IMG/VR virus record: IMGVR_UViG_3300001338_000004
Span: 1-55,193 of that record
Origin: a virus
Taxonomy: Duplodnaviria; Caudoviricetes
Strand: one strand, 5' to 3'
Length of the DNA: 55,193 bases
Shown: positions 5,829 to 21,519 of the stretch, piece by piece
Layout of the letters: each line of letters starts with the position of its first letter
How positions within the stretch are numbered: the stretch's first letter is position 1
Translations under genes and position numbers: made by a program
Notes under the pieces: generated by a model
Told to the model about the DNA's origin: nothing
Seen by the model: only the letters and a program-made list of their open reading frames with translations
The model's database searches: none

Positions 5829-6758
5829 CTACTTCTTGCCCTTCTTCGCCTTCGCCTTCTTCGCGGGCGGCTCGACCTTCAGGATGCTGTCGACGCCGAC
5901 GGTAACCTTCTTGCCGGCCTCGGTCTGGATCTGCACTTCCTCGTCGTCCTCATCCAGATCCAGGACCTCGCCCTTCTCCTTCTTGCCCTTCTTGTTCTTG
6001 AAGGTCACCACGCAGCCGACCGTGACGTCGGTGGCCGCCTCGTCGTCTTCCTCTTCTTCCTCTTCGGACTCGTCGTCGTCCTCGTCCTCCTCTTCCTCTT
6101 CGTCGTCTTCGTCGTCCGAGTCCGCGTCTTCGTCTTCCTCGGCGTCGTCCTCGTCTTCTTCGTCTTCGTCTTCCTCGTCGTCTTCCTCTTCCTCTTCGTC
6201 TTCGTCTTCCTCCTCGTCGTCGTCGTCCGAGTCCTCCTCGTCCGAGTCCTCATCTTCTTCGTCCTCGTCTTCCTCGTCCGTGGACATCAACTTGGAGATG
6301 TACACGTTCTGGTACTCGCTGCCGTCCTTGGTCTTCAGCGAGATCCGGCAGACCGGCTTCGCCTTCTCGAGCTCCGCGAGAATGCCCGGCAGATCCTTCA
6401 CGAGATCGTCGATCTCCTCGACGTCGTAGCCGAGGCGGTCGAGGTCGGCGCAGAGGAAGGTGAGGTTGTCCTCGGTCTCGATGCCCTGGAACGCCCACTT
6501 CTCCTTGCCTTCGTACTCGCCCTCAACGAACTTCCAGACGAAGCGAATCTGGGCGCGGCCCGCGTTGGACTTCTCCAGCTTCGCACCGACCAGACGCGCG
6601 AGGTACCGACCGTCGTCAAACTCGACGACCTTCGTACGCTCGCCCATCTTCTTCTTCGCTTTGCGCCAGAGCTTCTGCGCGGCCGCGAGCGCCTTGGACG
6701 CGTCGAACTTCTTGCCGCCCTTTTCCTTGCCCGGCTTACCTTTGGTTGCTTTCGCCAT
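5829..6758 (-). CDS. DUF669-like single-stranded DNA-binding protein with ~80-residue Asp/Glu tract and C-terminal small beta domain
   Basis: DDGRYLARLVGAKLEKSNAGRAQIRFVWKFVEGEYEG is typical of DUF669/OB-fold SSBs found next to Sak4; ATG 6758 with AAGGAG RBS. Confidence 0.7.
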   Translation of the reverse strand: MAKATKGKPGKEKGGKKFDASKALAAAQKLWRKAKKKMGERTKVVEFDDGRYLARLVGAKLEKSNAGRAQIRFVWKFVEGEYEGKEKWAFQGIETEDNLTFLCADLDRLGYDVEEIDDLVKDLPGILAELEKAKPVCRISLKTKDGSEYQNVYISKLMSTDEEDEDEEDEDSDEEDSDDDDEEEDEDEEEEEDDEEDEDEEDEDDAEEDEDADSDDEDDEEEEEDEDDDESEEEEEEDDEAATDVTVGCVVTFKNKKGKKEKGEVLDLDEDDEEVQIQTEAGKKVTVGVDSILKVEPPAKKAKAKKGKK

Positions 6759-6809
6759 GCGAACGACTCCTTGAATGCCTCGTGTCACCGACACGGGCGG
6801 TTGATCGAC

Positions 6810-7730: not shown

Positions 7731-8873
7731 CTACTCCGACGCGAGCGACGCGGCAACCGCTTCGTGCGGGTAGGTTCCGTTCGTGGCGATCCACTCGATG
7801 TCGCCACCGTTCATTGCGGCCGGAGTCAGGACCCAGAACGGCATCTGCACCGCGGTGTGCTGGCGCGGCAAGTCACGCTGTGCCGGCGGCACGGGCCACT
7901 TCCCGTCCGGCGGCCACGACTCGAGACCTGCGAACTTCGCCACCTTCGCCATATCGCTATGACTGCCGAGGTAGTACGCCATGAGCGGCGGGCACTTCAT
8001 CCGCACCTCACGCAGCATGAGCTGGGCGACGCAATTGACTTCCCAGTCCATGACATGCTCGAGCCGGTTGCCGAGCACCCCACGCAACGCGACGTAGTTG
8101 TAGTCGCAGTGAATGTAGGTTTGCGTCCCCATCCACAGCAACCGACGGGCGTCCTGCCACGGAATCCCGGCGTCGACCAACGCGCCGTAGAGCGCTTTGC
8201 CTTCGTCGAGGTACGCCTGAATCGCTCCACGGAGTCCGTGGGCTCGATCCTGTTGGTGAATGAACGCGTCGATCGGTGTCCAGTCGATCACACAGCCCTG
8301 TCGGTCGCCGAGATCACCCGACAAGAACGCCGTGTTGTCGGCCGGTCGACCAAGCTCGTCGAGGTCACAGGCCCGGGCCAACGTTTCTGGCATCGTCCAT
8401 CCGCGATGCCGCCAGTCGTTATCGCGACCGCCGTGCTGCATGAACCCGGCCCCGACACGCGTGCGCACGATCTGGTGTGTCTCTGCGCGTGTGCATCCGT
8501 CGACGCAGAAGCTGAACGTGATGCGCTCGAGGACCTGTTGCAGCGTCCGGCCCGCGAAGCACGCTTCAACGTACCCACGTTCGGTGTCGTTGAGTTTGGC
8601 CCAGCCGGTCCGCATGTTCATCGCTCCGGGCACGCGAGCGTCGGCTTTCTCGACCGGCTGTCGGTCCACGGTTCGACTGGGATGCTCACCCCAGTTCGCA
8701 ACCAGCGCGTCGTAGATGGACGAGAACAGATCGTCCTTCGGACCCCAGTGGTCCAGTGTCACCCGAAGCGCGGCCGGTCCCCGGGCGATGAGTGTGGTCG
8801 GTTCTTCTCCTTTGTGGATGGCGTGATTCCGATGCCCGGCATCGGCATAGTTGACTCCGCTATTCGTTGACAC
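7731..8873 (-). CDS. Divergent ThyX-fold (flavin-dependent thymidylate synthase-like) enzyme
   Basis: ERITFSFCVDGCTRAETHQIVRTR..FMQHGGR and GIPWQDARRLL..N..L....NRL....WEV match the ThyX scaffold. GTG 8873 with GAGGAG RBS. Confidence 0.8.
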   Translation of the reverse strand: MSTNSGVNYADAGHRNHAIHKGEEPTTLIARGPAALRVTLDHWGPKDDLFSSIYDALVANWGEHPSRTVDRQPVEKADARVPGAMNMRTGWAKLNDTERGYVEACFAGRTLQQVLERITFSFCVDGCTRAETHQIVRTRVGAGFMQHGGRDNDWRHRGWTMPETLARACDLDELGRPADNTAFLSGDLGDRQGCVIDWTPIDAFIHQQDRAHGLRGAIQAYLDEGKALYGALVDAGIPWQDARRLLWMGTQTYIHCDYNYVALRGVLGNRLEHVMDWEVNCVAQLMLREVRMKCPPLMAYYLGSHSDMAKVAKFAGLESWPPDGKWPVPPAQRDLPRQHTAVQMPFWVLTPAAMNGGDIEWIATNGTYPHEAVAASLASE

Positions 8874-9837
8874 GATACGACTCCTCTGCTTGGAGCACCG
8901 CTCCAAGGTTGGTGACCGACCGGACCTGAGGATGGAGCACTGCGGATCGGTCAGCGCAGTGAACCAGGTAGCTACGAATCCCGTGTTTGGCATATGCATT
9001 CGCCAACACGGGGACGTCGTCTACCGCAAATACGATCTTCGATACCACGTCGTCCTGGAAAAGTCGCTCCATCTTGGACCCTTCAACCGCCCACCAGAGG
9101 AGATCAAAGGGGAGTCGGTTCTCCTCCAGCCAACATACGGTGTCCGTGTAGATATTCGGCCACCGGTCCACCGGCCGCGCCGTCAAGAGCACGATACGCA
9201 ATCCTTTGGCACGGAGCGCCTCGAGAAACTCCCGTGCTCCGGGCATCAGCGGAAGTTTTCGCTTCCAGCCTTCGCTACGGAACCGATGCTTCACTTCGGC
9301 CCACCGCTGTTGGCTCCACCCAAGCGCGTCGGCGTCCAGAAAACGCCGGTCGGTGCAGAGACGGTCGTACAGCGGTGTGTCGATATAGCCGTGATCAAGC
9401 ATCCAGTAAAGCAGACCGCCGATGTAGTCGCAGATCACGTTGTCGATATCAATGACAACGCACGGCCCGTCGGACTCCACGAGCCACTCTTCTCGATAGC
9501 GCTGCTTGACTACCGCGGTCTTCTGGGCATACGCTTCGAGCAGCTTCTCCGGTGACCACCCATGCAACTGGGCGAGGGTCAGCCACATCTTGAAGATGTC
9601 CGTCAGTTCGTTGTCCGCTGCGCCGCTGTTGAACGCTTTGCGATGCCGTCGGTGTTTCTTCCATACGGTCACGTGCAAGAGTTCGTGCAGCTCGTCGGTC
9701 AAGTTCAATACGAACTCGCGAACCAGATCGACGTATTCCGGCGAGCCGACCGGGACCGACGCGCGTAGCTGTCGATTGAACGCTTCCTGGTCCGCCCACA
9801 GCGCCCGTAGTCCCGCCCCCAGTGTTTCGTTGCTCAT
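8860..9837 (-). CDS. Dimeric dUTPase/dCTPase (MazG fold) fused to HAD 5'-nucleotidase
   Basis: N-terminal DELHELL..WK..ELTDIF..AY..K..R; C-terminal HAD motifs IDIDNV, LLTAR, K, VDD. ATG 9837 overlaps the upstream TGA (ATGA). Confidence 0.8.
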   Translation of the reverse strand: MSNETLGAGLRALWADQEAFNRQLRASVPVGSPEYVDLVREFVLNLTDELHELLHVTVWKKHRRHRKAFNSGAADNELTDIFKMWLTLAQLHGWSPEKLLEAYAQKTAVVKQRYREEWLVESDGPCVVIDIDNVICDYIGGLLYWMLDHGYIDTPLYDRLCTDRRFLDADALGWSQQRWAEVKHRFRSEGWKRKLPLMPGAREFLEALRAKGLRIVLLTARPVDRWPNIYTDTVCWLEENRLPFDLLWWAVEGSKMERLFQDDVVSKIVFAVDDVPVLANAYAKHGIRSYLVHCADRSAVLHPQVRSVTNLGAVLQAEESYRVNE

Positions 9838-10673
9838 GAGAACCATCCGTCGCGTGTCCACGCTTTCAATGTTTTGAACGATACGTGCGCGAGCTCGTCC
9901 GGTTCCCATCGCGCGAACCGGCCGACGCAGAGGATGCCGTACGTTTGTAGCCAATCCAGGGTTTCACTTGTTCTGGGATTGGTGTATACCTTGCCCGGTG
10001 CGATGCGCGTCGCTGGTTGTTGTCCTCGCGGATCAAGCCGCTCCGCGTGCCGGTCATCTTCACGATCGGTGATTCGATACACCGACGTGGCGGGGTCGGC
10101 GATGTAGTTCACGTACACCGCCGGAGGCATGATGTCGGTGACCGGACGCGGTTCGACGACCACGTAGATCGGTTTGGACTGCAGCTTGCCGACCGGCTCT
10201 GGTCGCTTGCACAGCGACAGGAGGGCCGGTAGGGGAATCGTGGAAATTAATACGTCGAATTCGATCCGCTCGCCCGAGGCCATGAATAGGATTCGGTTGA
10301 ACGGATTGATTTCATTGACCCGCTGATTGTACTCCACCGTCAGCGGCGGAAGTTCCACGGAGTAGCCCGTGGTGTGCTCAATGAACTGCTTTCGAAAGTC
10401 ACGCAGCCGGAGATCCGAACTCTTGCCGACCTTGGCTTTGTACTGTTCGATCGCGCCGTCCGTTGCCGGTGACCCGTCGATATGCGTCACGACCGAGAAT
10501 TCGTGACACGGCAGTCCCGTGAGCGGTTCGTGCAGGTAGTTAGCTCCGTAGAACCGCGACTGACCTTTGGTCTGCGGTTGCGGCCGCCAGTCCAACACCC
10601 GTGCTTGGGTGATGAGGGTCTTGGCCAGCTGACCGAGAAACCCACCACCCACGATGACAACTTTGCGACTCAT
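9834..10673 (-). CDS. FAD-dependent oxidoreductase/mutase, UDP-galactopyranose mutase (Glf)/HemY-like fold
   Basis: Rossmann VVIVGGGFLG, YGANYLH (compare Glf YGAHIFH), DVLISTIP and C-terminal VGRFARW. Confidence 0.7.
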   Translation of the reverse strand: MSRKVVIVGGGFLGQLAKTLITQARVLDWRPQPQTKGQSRFYGANYLHEPLTGLPCHEFSVVTHIDGSPATDGAIEQYKAKVGKSSDLRLRDFRKQFIEHTTGYSVELPPLTVEYNQRVNEINPFNRILFMASGERIEFDVLISTIPLPALLSLCKRPEPVGKLQSKPIYVVVEPRPVTDIMPPAVYVNYIADPATSVYRITDREDDRHAERLDPRGQQPATRIAPGKVYTNPRTSETLDWLQTYGILCVGRFARWEPDELAHVSFKTLKAWTRDGWFS

Positions 10674-11047
10674 GTCGGCTCCTGTCGCAGATTTGGTGTG
10701 ACCGACGACACACGCCCGACGTATTCCCGGCCTCCGTGACTGCCGATGAACAGACGCGCGTTTCGTCGTCTCGAGACCTCGTTGAATTTCTCGATCACCT
10801 CCGCCTCCAAATCAATACCGAGGCTGGACGCGAGTAGGGTCAGGTACGCTTGCACATCCGCGAGTTCTTTGGCAATGTCCTTGTCAGAAATGTGCTCGCC
10901 CCGTAGCCGCTTCTTCAAGAAGTTCGCGGCTTCGCCCACTTCGCCGACGAGTGCGGTCATCCAATCGGATGCACTCCAGTGATGCAACGGGTGGAACACT
11001 TCTTCACATCGCTCTTCGTTGATATGTTGGAAATCTCTCAGATGCAT
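10670..11047 (-). CDS. mazG: MazG-like nucleotide pyrophosphohydrolase
   Basis: GEVGEAAN..KK...ELADV...IDL....KF signature; ATG 11047 with GGAGG RBS. Confidence 0.85.
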   Translation of the reverse strand: MHLRDFQHINEERCEEVFHPLHHWSASDWMTALVGEVGEAANFLKKRLRGEHISDKDIAKELADVQAYLTLLASSLGIDLEAEVIEKFNEVSRRRNARLFIGSHGGREYVGRVSSVTPNLRQEPT

Positions 11048-11048
11048 G

Positions 11049-12095
11049 TCAACCCTCCAACTCTCGGAACATCTTGTTGCGTTTGAAGAACCCGGACCGT
11101 CCCGCGCCCTCGCCGCCACAGAACGCGCCGAGATACCCGCAGCGGCCATACTTGCCCTCGCACTGATCCGAATTCTTGTAGTGACCCGACTCTCCGGCCC
11201 ACCACAGCAAGAAGTCGCTCACCAGCGCCGTCAACTCCTGCCGGACTTTCTGGAGATCCTTCTTGCTCATGTCAACACGAAGCCGAATGAAGTAGTGTTG
11301 CGGTTTCTTCTGGACCTCCTTCGCCACCCGGGCCGTGTACGACGTGATCGTGTCGCTCTTCTTGAAATGTTGGCCCGGTCGGCGAATGATGTTGTAGATC
11401 AATCCGGACGGCTCGACTCCATGCAGATGCTGGAGTGCCGTCAGGTAGACGCCGGTTTGAAAGTCATGCGGCAGCATGTCCACCAAGACATCCGGTGAGA
11501 TGCGTGACTTGGTCTTCGTCTCCAGCAAGCGGATCGCGCCGGACCCCTTGCCGGCGAGAAGGTCTCGGAAGACGCCGTCCATTTTGCCACGGAGAAAGGT
11601 TCGCATGTGCTTGCCGCTCTTCGTGACGACCTCGAACGGAATCTTGAATTCCTGTTCCAGCTGAATCCATGCCATGCGTTTCAGATCCAGGCGATGGTGC
11701 TTGAAGTACGCCGGCATCAAGACCCGGGCCATCGCGATACTCAACTCGAGTTCTTTGATCGCGTCGCCGGACGCCCGTGGGTTGTCTTTCTTCCAGACCT
11801 CCCCGGCCGTGTGGCACATCTTGAGGATCCATTCAGCGGACGGAGCCTCCGTGAGTTTCTTCCGCCGGATGCGATCGTAGGTCTGCTCCAGAACGTAGTG
11901 GCAGATGGACCCAAAGATCGTGGCCATCTTTTCCCGACGCGAGGTCCACCCGACGAGGAAGAGACGGGCACGTTCGCGGCATCCTTTGAAGTTGCTCAGC
12001 AACCCGGCCGTGACGCCGTCGCGCTCCGGATCGTACAGGTTGCCTCGGTCCATGTCAGACTCAACGACGCGCAGTGGAATCAGTTTCAGTTTCAC
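11049..12095 (-). CDS. PD-(D/E)XK (RecB/Cas4-like) exonuclease
   Basis: C..R, FGSICH, LEQEF, RGKMDG, LETKT, Q..VY and C-terminal Cys cluster. Confidence 0.85.
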   Translation of the reverse strand: MKLKLIPLRVVESDMDRGNLYDPERDGVTAGLLSNFKGCRERARLFLVGWTSRREKMATIFGSICHYVLEQTYDRIRRKKLTEAPSAEWILKMCHTAGEVWKKDNPRASGDAIKELELSIAMARVLMPAYFKHHRLDLKRMAWIQLEQEFKIPFEVVTKSGKHMRTFLRGKMDGVFRDLLAGKGSGAIRLLETKTKSRISPDVLVDMLPHDFQTGVYLTALQHLHGVEPSGLIYNIIRRPGQHFKKSDTITSYTARVAKEVQKKPQHYFIRLRVDMSKKDLQKVRQELTALVSDFLLWWAGESGHYKNSDQCEGKYGRCGYLGAFCGGEGAGRSGFFKRNKMFRELEG

Positions 12096-20421: not shown

Positions 20422-20716
20422 ACGAATGGGCGGCGTGTAGTCCCACGCGTTCTTCGAGGGGTACGCCGTCCTTCAAAAACAGTACTACCCGGGCCACGTG
20501 CACGACCGGCGTTCCCTGTCCACCCAGGTGAATGACGGGACGCGGATTGCAGTGTGCGTGTGACTTCTTCCACTTCTTTGTCGAGTACGCCCCGGTCCAC
20601 TCCCGGCATCCGGTCTGCCGGTTGTACTTTACGTAGCGTATGAGACGTTCTAGCAACGTCCCTCGGGTACGCGGCGTCCGTGGATGCAACGACGGTTGGC
20701 GACGACGGGTCTTCAC
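20294..20716 (-). CDS. HNH (His-Me finger) endonuclease
   Basis: GCREWTGA...VHVARVV...AAHSCDNYKCVDLRHL...EN; GTG overlaps the upstream TGA. Confidence 0.8.
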   Translation of the reverse strand: MKTRRRQPSLHPRTPRTRGTLLERLIRYVKYNRQTGCREWTGAYSTKKWKKSHAHCNPRPVIHLGGQGTPVVHVARVVLFLKDGVPLEERVGLHAAHSCDNYKCVDLRHLSWQTPEENYSDYVRRRQKALFPVRPRRTAV

Positions 20717-21519
20717 GCGAGCAACGACCGCATGGTGCGAGTGCGAATGAAACGCTGTGCGGCCCGGCCGTGAGCCACGATGGCGATCGATTTCGCATTC
20801 ACCGTATTGCCCTGGCACAGCTGACATTTCTGGCACACCGTCTGATGGCCCGCTTCAGCCGACGCCGGACAGACAATTTCATCCCGTGCCAGGAGTTCCT
20901 CGGGCGTACGACACCGGAACGTACGCCAGCCGAGGAGACGCGCCTCACGCTGCTCCGCTGCATTGTCCACGCTTGCCATCAAGAAGTACCGCAAGGCCGC
21001 GTTCGCCGGGTCACGCCAGAAGTGCGTGTACCCCGTCCATCCGGCCAGCACCGGCAGGATCAACTGCCATATCGGTAGCGGCACTGCGGCCGGGTCACCG
21101 TACGCGCCGATACGTAGATACCCGCCGTTCAACACCGAACGAATCTGCGTGTTCGAGTAACGTGGGTACGGCTCCCGCTGTTCCCGTCGCCAGATGGACT
21201 GCGGCCCGCGCCATACCGGCACGTAACAGGTGCGTCCGGTTTGCTCGTTCCCTTTGCGATGCACGCAGTTGCCACAGATCGCGCGGTCGTCGTCGTGGCG
21301 GTTCGCAACCCCTGGGGTGGTCTTCGCGACGAGGATCCAGGCTTGCCACATATCGCCGAGTTTGCGATTCGGCGTAGCGGCGGGCGGTGTCACAACGACC
21401 AGGATGCGTGGGCCGGCAAATCCTGGAAGGACGGACGGCCCGTCGTAGATCACGAAGCTATCGGGGCGTATTGGCACGGTCCACCTGTTCGATCTGGAGA
21501 TTGACCCGGTCGATCGCAA
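20713..21519 (-). CDS. Cys-rich phage protein, putative Fe-S/radical-SAM-like fold (start uncertain)
   Basis: NRKLG, CGNC...CY, RIGAYGDP, GYTH, MASVD and CPA...CQKCQLC. Confidence 0.55.
   Translation of the reverse strand: MRSTGSISRSNRWTVPIRPDSFVIYDGPSVLPGFAGPRILVVVTPPAATPNRKLGDMWQAWILVAKTTPGVANRHDDDRAICGNCVHRKGNEQTGRTCYVPVWRGPQSIWRREQREPYPRYSNTQIRSVLNGGYLRIGAYGDPAAVPLPIWQLILPVLAGWTGYTHFWRDPANAALRYFLMASVDNAAEQREARLLGWRTFRCRTPEELLARDEIVCPASAEAGHQTVCQKCQLCQGNTVNAKSIAIVAHGRAAQRFIRTRTMRSLLA

Follow-up and report, generated by a model that had tools for sequence, protein, structure and literature searches.

Flavin-dependent thymidylate synthases (ThyX), which make deoxythymidine monophosphate (dTMP) from deoxyuridine monophosphate (dUMP), are the closest described relatives of a protein encoded on the minus strand at 7731..8873 of IMG/VR virus record IMGVR_UViG_3300001338_000004 (Duplodnaviria; Caudoviricetes). 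The whole record, which is 55,193 bp long with a CheckV completeness of 93%, was analysed and is hereafter called the window. In silico analyses indicate that this protein has the ThyX fold but a rewired active site, and tentatively point to a product other than dTMP. In canonical ThyX (T. maritima numbering, used throughout), His53 is described as stacking on the folate pterin or on the reduced flavin and as hydrogen-bonded to Tyr91, and Ser88 and Tyr91 are proposed to aid the attack of dUMP on the flavin carbinolamine, i.e. methylene transfer; passages of the same papers report that S88A, R90A and Y91A strongly slow this attack step and that flavin oxidation is ca. 1000-fold slower in a Tyr91 mutant (PMC11940539, PMC8316439). 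Activation of dUMP is assigned to Arg174, and ThyX is reported to use formaldehyde directly (PMC8316439), while acid trapping is described to yield 5-hydroxymethyl-dUMP as an intermediate of the ThyX reaction (PMC3498832).

Two other groups of described enzymes are relevant for comparison. PolB, a ThyX paralogue of polyoxin biosynthesis reported to methylate C5 of UMP/dUMP (PMC5954106), is a precedent for a ThyX-fold enzyme recruited beyond housekeeping dTMP supply, although it still methylates and belongs to an antibiotic cluster whereas the window protein occurs in a phage replication module. dUMP hydroxymethylases of the ThyA type are reported from phages with 5-hydroxymethyldeoxyuridine (5-hydroxymethyl-dU) or hypermodified thymidine, namely SPO1, PhiW-14, ViI and M6 (PMC8989533, PMC3498832). 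These are analogous to the window module in their role only, as relatives of a synthase that stop short of dTMP before replication: their fold is unrelated, membership of the window protein is excluded (it has the ThyX fold, and PF00303 matches were found in 0/16 records, see below) and the mechanism would be flavin-based in the window enzyme as opposed to cysteine/folate-based in theirs. Finally, a flavin-binding ThyA homologue is reported to make 5-hydroxy-dCMP in RB69 and DLP3, so that thymidylate-synthase folds are known to be re-used for hydroxylation (PMC13326640).

Sequence and fold of the ThyX-like protein

The gene model comprises the following features.
7731..8873, minus strand: ThyX-like gene, 380 aa, with its stop codon at 7731-7733 and a GTG start at 8871-8873
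8881..8886, minus strand: Shine-Dalgarno-like GAGGAG, 7 nt upstream of the GTG start, as read from the sequence

The gene lies inside an open reading frame (ORF) at 7731-8999 (-) that is open over 422 aa, and a start at GTG 8873 agrees with P0001, a database protein of 380 aa, and with where homologues have their N-termini. The protein matches the Pfam family Thy1 (PF02511) with 62.6 bits for a cut-off of 24.8, over profile positions 36-190 of 191, and scores 51.3 bits with the NCBIfam thyX equivalog TIGR02170, which is under the cut-off of 87.9. An AlphaFold2 model derived from 111 sequences has a mean pLDDT (predicted local distance difference test) of 91.7. Its best PDB match with Foldseek is T. 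maritima ThyX (8reo_A, E 7e-9, template-modelling (TM) score of 0.72 by target), followed by PolB (4p5b_A, E 8.5e-9), with M. tuberculosis ThyX also among the best; overall, the ThyX and PolB matches have E values of ca. 1e-8 and TM scores of 0.62-0.74 by target. Searching solved structures with the single window sequence gave weak C-terminal matches only (E 0.03), and the family profile was required for alignment to solved ThyX structures. By sequence and fold, the window protein is a true ThyX homologue.

In common with ThyX of T. maritima (TM0449) and M. tuberculosis, it has the fold, the Thy1 family, Glu58 and five arginines. It differs in size, since ThyX has ca. 220-250 aa and the window protein is extended at both ends: the Thy1 match covers residues 96-295 of 380, ca. 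35 aa precede the first core strand, an insertion of ca. 30 aa occupies residues 63-95 and ca. 80 aa follow the Thy1 match. The N-terminal tail contains a D-x-x-H-R motif.

Active-site residues

The residue map was drawn from a MAFFT alignment with canonical ThyX representatives (consensus GHxSVLEH...THQLVRHRxAxSYSQQSQRY), in which the first two segments below were located by translation. The equivalents of Arg147 and Arg174 were placed by aligning the family profile hidden Markov model to T. maritima ThyX chains, whose numbers are offset by a 12-residue tag.
8526..8546, minus strand: TLQQVLE segment, at the position of the canonical G-H-x-S-V-x-E
8424..8465, minus strand: ThyX motif in its altered form, with the first part of the active-site loop, RTRVGAGFMQHGGR
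8142..8153, minus strand: DARR, with R243 equivalent to Arg147
8061..8069, minus strand: NRL, with R270 equivalent to Arg174

The other mapped T. maritima residues correspond to the following residues of the window protein.
His53: Leu111, replaced
Ser55: Gln113, replaced
Glu58: Glu116, kept
Arg78: Arg137, kept
His79: Thr138, replaced
Arg80: Arg139, kept
Ser88: Gly148, replaced
Gln89: Gly149, replaced
Arg90: Arg150, kept
Tyr91: Asp151, replaced

Translation of 8424-8546 (-) gives TLQQVLERITFSFCVDGCTRAETHQIVRTRVGAGFMQHGGR and that of 8061-8153 (-) gives DARR...NRL. In place of the canonical ThyX motif RHR-x7/8-S-x-R-Y, the window protein reads RTR-x8-G-G-R-D, in which R137, T138 and R139 are followed by H147, G148, G149 and R150 and then by D151-N-D-W-R-H. 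The five arginines that bind or activate dUMP (Arg78, 80, 90, 147 and 174) are all kept, as R137, R139, R150, R243 and R270. As judged from the aligned residues, the nucleotide side of the active site appears intact and the carbon-transfer side appears rebuilt. His79 of ThyX, which presumably contacts the flavin adenine dinucleotide (FAD), is given no role in the passages of PMC11940539 and PMC8316439 on which this account draws.

A sequence-only reading of the same DNA had reported the changes in the RHR motif (His to Thr, Ser to Gly), and translation and alignment bear these out letter for letter. Its remark that TLQQVLE carries no His likewise holds, as do the retention of the DARR and NRL arginines, the extension of both termini and the ThyX homology, for which it had proposed superposition on T. 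maritima ThyX (see 8reo_A above). The change of Tyr91 to Asp151 was absent from it. Two of the points that it had taken as established do not stand: activation of dUMP, which it ascribed to the His and Ser of the motif, is assigned in passages of PMC8316439 to Arg174, which is kept here, and the folate role that it gave to the RHR His belongs to His53 in the account of PMC11940539.

Conservation and phylogeny of the family

A word-indexed protein search with the ThyX-like protein gave 307 matches (clusters at 90% identity) at E <= 1e-3. The best 120 of these 307 are all at least 50% identical to it, 346-510 aa long and metagenomic, and often lie on contigs of 45-78 kb. A family alignment of 111 sequences was made of the window protein and 110 of these 120, leaving out P0001, which is identical, and nine with less than 90% coverage. 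At the mapped positions, L, Q, E, R, R, G, G, R, D, R and R (i.e. at 53, 55, 58, 78, 80, 88, 89, 90, 91, 147 and 174) each occur in 111/111 sequences and the loop MQHGGRDNDWR is invariant; the His79 position is occupied by Thr in 81, Ser in 19 and Ala in 11. Because each is fixed in 111/111, the His79 position apart, these residue states are not due to chance, and the observation of a rewired motif is far beyond it. The window protein is a real and strongly constrained ThyX-fold protein, very probably an enzyme, of a family of uncultured phages.

Near the C-terminus, between window residues ca. 327 and ca. 337, a Cys-rich insert with at least two CxxC (CxxCxH...CxxC) is present in 60 of the 111 relatives; it is 30-70 residues long and looks zinc-ribbon-like. 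Roughly half of the family, with the window protein among them, is without it. In one of the 120 relatives (P0017, 510 aa), the ThyX-like enzyme is fused at its C-terminus to a phosphopantetheine-attachment (PP-binding) domain (40.9 bits for a cut-off of 20.8), with a Glu (GFDELD) at the usual attachment serine so that it may not be a working carrier. In another representative (P0199) an intein/Hint domain interrupts the ThyX-like protein, and in a third (P0262) a ThyX with the canonical motif is fused to a guanylate-kinase-like domain, i.e. a synthase-kinase fusion.

A profile search of 1.84 billion representatives at the 50% identity level returned 1871 at E <= 1e-3, 318 at <= 1e-10 and 45 at <= 1e-30, a set which shades into canonical ThyX. 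A FastTree phylogeny was computed for 138 sequences, namely 134 full-length representatives, the window protein, L081 and two proteins of cultured phages described below, PB1 gp61 and Onyinye gp86; the list of representatives is biased towards the window-family profile and the proportions of types in the tree are not representative. At the His53 position, 21 sequences have His and 1 has Tyr; these 22 group into a single clan (support 0.92), and no such sequence occurs outside it, while the window protein, PB1 gp61 and Onyinye gp86 are found among the other 116 sequences, across from the His53 clan. A sizeable subgroup of the clan without His53, at least 13 of the 138 sequences, combines Cys at Ser88 with Asp or Glu at Tyr91 (classes LACD, LSCD, LTCD, LQCE, LQCD, LACE, LNCD and MQCD) and represents a further fixed form of the loop.

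When genomes of 185,579 prokaryote species were scanned for two patterns of the family, 43 matches were obtained and none was confirmed, which gave neither a prophage copy nor a clue to the host. With tblastn against 50,697 phage records, the ThyX-like protein had 6 weak matches and the neighbouring flavoprotein none, and no close cultured relative was found. No description of a ThyX-type hydroxymethylase or of the rewired clan was found in the literature covered by our search, most subscription journals being outside it.

Gene neighbourhood

The minus-strand half of the window is a replication and recombination module, as indicated by family and profile matches, and the plus-strand half is a structural module of the siphovirus type; no tRNA genes were found in the window. 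On the minus strand, the order is primase, family-A DNA polymerase, acidic protein, Sak4-like ATPase, ThyX-like gene, pyrophosphatase/HAD fusion, flavoprotein-like gene, small MazG, PD-(D/E)XK nuclease, RuvC-like protein, SNF2 helicase, cold-shock-domain protein, HNH nuclease and ligase. The genes directly upstream of the ThyX-like gene are the following.
8860..9843, minus strand: predicted pyrophosphatase/5'-deoxynucleotidase fusion, 327 aa if started at Val 9843, in an ORF that at its longest reaches 9954
9834..10673, minus strand: flavoprotein-like gene, 279 aa, with an N-terminal GGGxxG and a minimal fold of the UDP-galactopyranose-mutase/amine-oxidase type
10670..11149, minus strand: small MazG-like pyrophosphatase (Pfam MazG 22.6 bits, phrog_229)

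The context of the ThyX-like gene was surveyed by tblastn, with 18 proteins of the window as queries against 50 related loci from IMG/VR. The order nuclease, flavoprotein, fusion, ThyX-like, Sak4-like, acidic protein, polymerase and primase is fixed in related loci. Both the flavoprotein and the fusion occur upstream of the ThyX-like gene in 34 of the 50, which are 34/34 of those with enough upstream sequence; the other 16 end within 1.2 kb upstream, 5 of them showing the fusion alone and 11 having less than 250 nt. The fusion thus precedes the ThyX-like gene in 39/50 loci, and no locus with enough sequence is without it. All three genes are also present in two more distant loci (L071 and L077). 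The small MazG-like gene is found in just 2/50 related loci and is not conserved in the module. Within the module, the ThyX-like protein is conserved best, with 48-65% identity in related loci; the flavoprotein has 32-47% and the fusion 33-45%.

As a control, 41 flavoprotein and fusion queries were run against the best 80 viral loci whose ThyX is of the canonical RHR type; 42 of these loci have complete flanks of 7 kb. No homologue was detected at E <= 1e-3 in any of the 80 (best E 0.039), and the identical 41 queries match 40/50 loci of the rewired family. Because the partners are found in 34/34 family loci and in 0/80 canonical loci, the pairing belongs to the rewired enzyme and not to viral thymidylate synthesis in general.

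The N-terminal half of the fusion is all-alpha and MazG/dUTPase_2-like, and its C-terminal HAD half is closest to NT5C, the 5'(3')-deoxyribonucleotidases. The Pfam matches of the window protein to NT5C, HAD and dUTPase_2 are all under the cut-offs, and its homologue in L071 is above those for dUTPase_2 and NT5C. In an alignment of 18 fusion proteins, E79, D82, K85, K108 and E119 are invariant, as are the HAD motifs D132-x-D134-x-V, part of a DxDGVxxD-type motif, and T221-x-R-P, with K257 and D276 nearly so. The fusion therefore appears to keep catalytic-type residues of both predicted domains. In phages with ThyA-type hydroxymethylases, the synthase relative is accompanied by enzymes that clear deoxynucleoside tri- or monophosphates, a role for which the fusion would be a candidate.

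The flavoprotein-like protein has a C-terminal GRFAxWxPDELxH motif and a weak match to Pfam Amino_oxidase. Its AlphaFold2 model (pLDDT 92.2) has UDP-galactopyranose mutases (UGMs) as best Foldseek matches (4dsg_A, E 4.6e-9, TM 0.65 by query), followed by protoporphyrinogen oxidase and renalase, and its Atlas neighbours give the same picture. UGMs use N5 of the reduced flavin as a nucleophile on a sugar carbon. The genes upstream of the fusion in L089 (335 aa) and L109 (276 aa) gave partial profile matches only to the flavoprotein (probability 48% and 40%, respectively) and were not counted.

Several other genes of the window and of related loci were recorded. The acidic protein adjoining the Sak4-like ATPase (321 aa, 5829-6794 (-)) has a middle third of nearly pure Asp/Glu; its position is kept in most related loci with 37-56% identity, and it has no family match. 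Between the HNH endonuclease and the ATP-dependent ligase, 20713-21519 (-) encodes a 268-aa protein that matches PHROG 2554 (unknown function) with E 3.7e-63. In distant loci, ThyX-like genes of the clan without His53 have varied nucleotide-tailoring neighbours: one adjoins a nucleoside 2-deoxyribosyltransferase-family gene (L098:6360-6929) and two adjoin a short-chain dehydrogenase (L105:8518-9294 and L093). Neither an aminotransferase nor a deoxynucleoside monophosphate kinase was seen in the window or among the 52 ORFs of 7 distant loci.

Relatives in cultured phages

Pbunavirus PB1 encodes a 'FAD-dependent thymidylate synthase', gp61, which like the window protein has no equivalents of His53 and His79, reading ...TIRSPFEF... 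and ...THQLVRTRTGAYQQETSR... (VRTR), and which falls on the same side of the tree. It has T-S-R where the window protein has G-G-R. PB1 gp68 is a homologue of the window flavoprotein (hhalign 96%, E 2.6e-9, 243 columns), although the genes for gp61 and gp68 are non-adjacent, unlike those of the window module. PB1 gp59 ('polynucleotide kinase') was considered as a homologue of the fusion and rejected (no BLAST match at E 0.01).

The DNA of Pbunavirus phages, earlier thought to be unmodified, is reported in passages of a 2025 preprint (PMC12191111) to contain thymidine derivatives of 362 and 390 Da in F8 and 14-1, described as sugar-alcohol and aldopentose derivatives; the hypermodified thymidine replaces about a quarter of thymidines, in a TG context, and F8 and 14-1 are stated there to have no homologues of genes earlier implicated in modification. 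By our own arithmetic, two isomers would account for the mass of the 362-Da nucleoside of F8: a hydroxymethyl-dU with an ether bond to a tetritol, and a 5-(deoxypentityl)-dU joined by a C-C bond. The terms 'thymidylate' and 'ThyX' have 0 occurrences in PMC12191111, where a link of gp61 and gp68 to the modification is thus unpublished; that both take part in it is something we infer here and not a proposal of the preprint's authors. A paper on T-dioxygenases (PMC13229309) makes no mention of Pseudomonas phages or ThyX and therefore provides no known alternative route for Pbunavirus.

Mycobacterium phage Onyinye has the three gene kinds of the window beside its replicative polymerase, namely oxidoreductase gp78, phosphatase gp80 and ThyX-like gp86. 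The first is homologous to the window flavoprotein (E 2e-7), the second matches the HAD half of the window fusion and the third is without His53 and His79, as is the window protein, but keeps Ser88 and Arg90 (QQSMR). Further differences are that the pyrophosphatase is unfused and the polymerase is of the DnaE type. Microbacterium phage TinyMiny is another cultured carrier of the three genes. Streptomyces phage Dryad gp58, which adjoins an oxidoreductase and a phosphatase, is no relative of ThyX (hhalign probability 0.05%).

Possible functions of the rewired enzyme

We infer FAD use, dUMP as the substrate, the product and the roles of both neighbours from the residues and gene contexts described above. 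The reading to which we give most weight, at a probability of roughly 45%, is that the protein is a dUMP C5-modifying enzyme with a product other than dTMP, most simply a 5-hydroxymethyl-dUMP synthase. The enzyme would still bind and activate the uracil deoxynucleotide but would stop before the end of the normal ThyX cycle and release another C5-substituted dUMP: after transfer of the carbon to C5, water would be added to the exocyclic methylene in place of hydride reduction, giving 5-hydroxymethyl-dUMP. Hydroxymethylation is mechanistically the shortest step away from ThyX chemistry. Besides the fold and the residue states, we count in favour of this reading the score under the thyX equivalog cut-off, the invariant new loop, the linkage to two partner genes that canonical loci do not have, the catalytic-type residues of the fusion, the position in the tree outside the His53 clan, the PB1 proteins together with the thymidine modification reported for Pbunavirus, and the acid-trapped ThyX intermediate. 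The product might then feed a route of thymidine replacement or modification. In such a route, the pyrophosphatase/5'-deoxynucleotidase fusion encoded upstream would adjust the pool of dU and dT nucleotides, while the mutase-like flavoprotein may work on that nucleotide or on its flavin chemistry. The sequence-only reading had likewise proposed a changed chemistry for an enzyme that still binds FAD and a pyrimidine nucleotide; with the nucleotide arginines kept and the folate and methylene residues swapped for an invariant set, this proposal is partly supported. Of the reactions it named, O2-dependent C5 hydroxylation finds no support here, and deoxycytidine monophosphate (dCMP) looks less likely than dUMP as the substrate because every uracil-side Arg is kept.

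Several points weigh against a C5-modifying enzyme. Matches to the family profile grade continuously from the rewired family via many variants to canonical ThyX, and PB1 gp61 is only 23% identical to the window protein over 169 aa. With the folate-stacking His gone, a reaction that depends on folate is less to be expected, and this applies to hydroxymethylation as well; the new loop residues His147, Asp151, Asp153, Trp154 and His156 could be stand-ins for the lost ones. In Pbunavirus, the TG context of the modification points to a step at the DNA level. Pre-replicative base-replacement pathways often bring their own kinase, and thymidylate kinase (PF02223) was found in 0/16 records, i.e. the window record and 15 related large records, nor was a further Walker-A kinase found in the window, where only the Sak4-like ATPase and a tail protein carry Walker-A. 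In these 16 records, ThyA (PF00303, Thymidylat_synt) was found in none and Thy1 matches exactly once in each, so that the enzyme is the sole thymidylate-synthase-like gene, a pattern expected of a plain dTMP supplier. Finally, a complete 44,338-bp relative with terminal repeats (G018), whose ThyX-like protein reads ...SFAQHGGRDNDWRHRGWTMPET, keeps the QHGGRDNDWRH loop but has neither the flavoprotein nor the fusion and therefore indicates that the enzyme works without these partners. Two further loci (L079 and L080) with a QQSMR-type enzyme show neither partner in the available sequence, both records being fragments.

Much of this would equally be expected if the protein were still a flavin-dependent thymidylate synthase (dUMP to dTMP) with its active-site loop and folate site rebuilt with other residues, which is a strong rival reading, if somewhat less probable. 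The neighbours would then have ordinary tasks in the nucleotide pool, one as a dUTPase that provides dUMP and the other as a reductase-like flavoprotein. In favour of such a synthase are the Thy1 score above the Pfam cut-off with all dUMP-side arginines kept, its occurrence as the only gene of its kind in 16/16 records with neither ThyA nor a dedicated kinase, and the complete genome that carries the enzyme alone; intermediates also exist, such as the L089 protein (...QQSFRY), which keeps Ser88, Arg90 and Tyr91 and is without His53, and relatives in cultured actinophages are annotated as ThyX-like thymidylate synthases. It is harder to reconcile with the replacement in 111/111 sequences of three residues with a published kinetic or structural role, with the score under the thyX equivalog cut-off and with the absence of the partner genes from 80/80 canonical viral ThyX loci. 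Moreover, a fused 5'-deoxynucleotidase-like domain beside a dTMP synthase would probably tend to waste dUMP or dTMP.

A ThyX-fold flavoenzyme with another chemistry or substrate, be it O2-dependent C5 hydroxylation, a reaction on dCMP or a ribonucleotide, or transfer of a non-folate carbon unit (such as formaldehyde or a sugar-derived aldehyde) carried on flavin N5, is unlikely. The folate-stacking His is indeed lost across the whole clan, the fold of the partner flavoprotein is closest to UGMs and, from the reports cited above, ThyX can use formaldehyde (PMC8316439), Pbunavirus derivatives are of the sugar-alcohol and aldopentose type (PMC12191111) and 5-hydroxy-dCMP of RB69 and DLP3 is the product of a ThyA homologue that binds flavin (PMC13326640). 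On the other hand, the equivalents of Arg174 and Arg147 are kept and would fit uracil over cytosine, the setting in a replication module fits a deoxynucleotide, and the window has no recognised gene for a glycosyltransferase or for sugar nucleotides. A specific form of this idea, for which we see little probability, is that reduced-flavin N5 chemistry of the clan without His53 and of the UGM-like flavoprotein puts a non-folate carbon (formaldehyde or a sugar-derived aldehyde) on C5 of dUMP to give hydroxyalkyl- or polyhydroxyalkyl-dU nucleotides, which would be a new pre-replicative route to hypermodified thymidine. A non-catalytic ThyX-derived protein, e.g. a regulator that binds nucleotides or a protein with a structural part in the replication machinery, would account for the loss of the canonical catalytic-loop residues and for the location among replication and recombination genes but is very improbable, given a new loop that is invariant, polar and enzyme-like, substrate-binding arginines that are fully kept and very high conservation across diverged phages.

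Implications for phage DNA modification

To our knowledge, every described route by which phage DNA acquires 5-hydroxymethyl pyrimidines or hypermodified thymidine starts from ThyA-type enzymes or from dioxygenases acting at the DNA level. Should the rewired enzyme be an ordinary thymidylate synthase, it would be a ThyX able to work without His53, Ser88 and Tyr91, which would bear on the debated mechanism of ThyX and on inhibitor design. If it is instead a dUMP C5-modifying enzyme with a product other than dTMP, a ThyX-fold enzyme would constitute a second, flavin-based entry point to modified thymidine, and the family, with at least 307 clusters at 90% identity, would provide a marker for modified-DNA phages in metagenomes. 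PB1 gp61 and gp68 would then represent a concrete candidate pair for the thymidine hypermodification of therapeutic Pbunavirus phages, and the question of how their DNA is modified would become directly testable in a cultured system.

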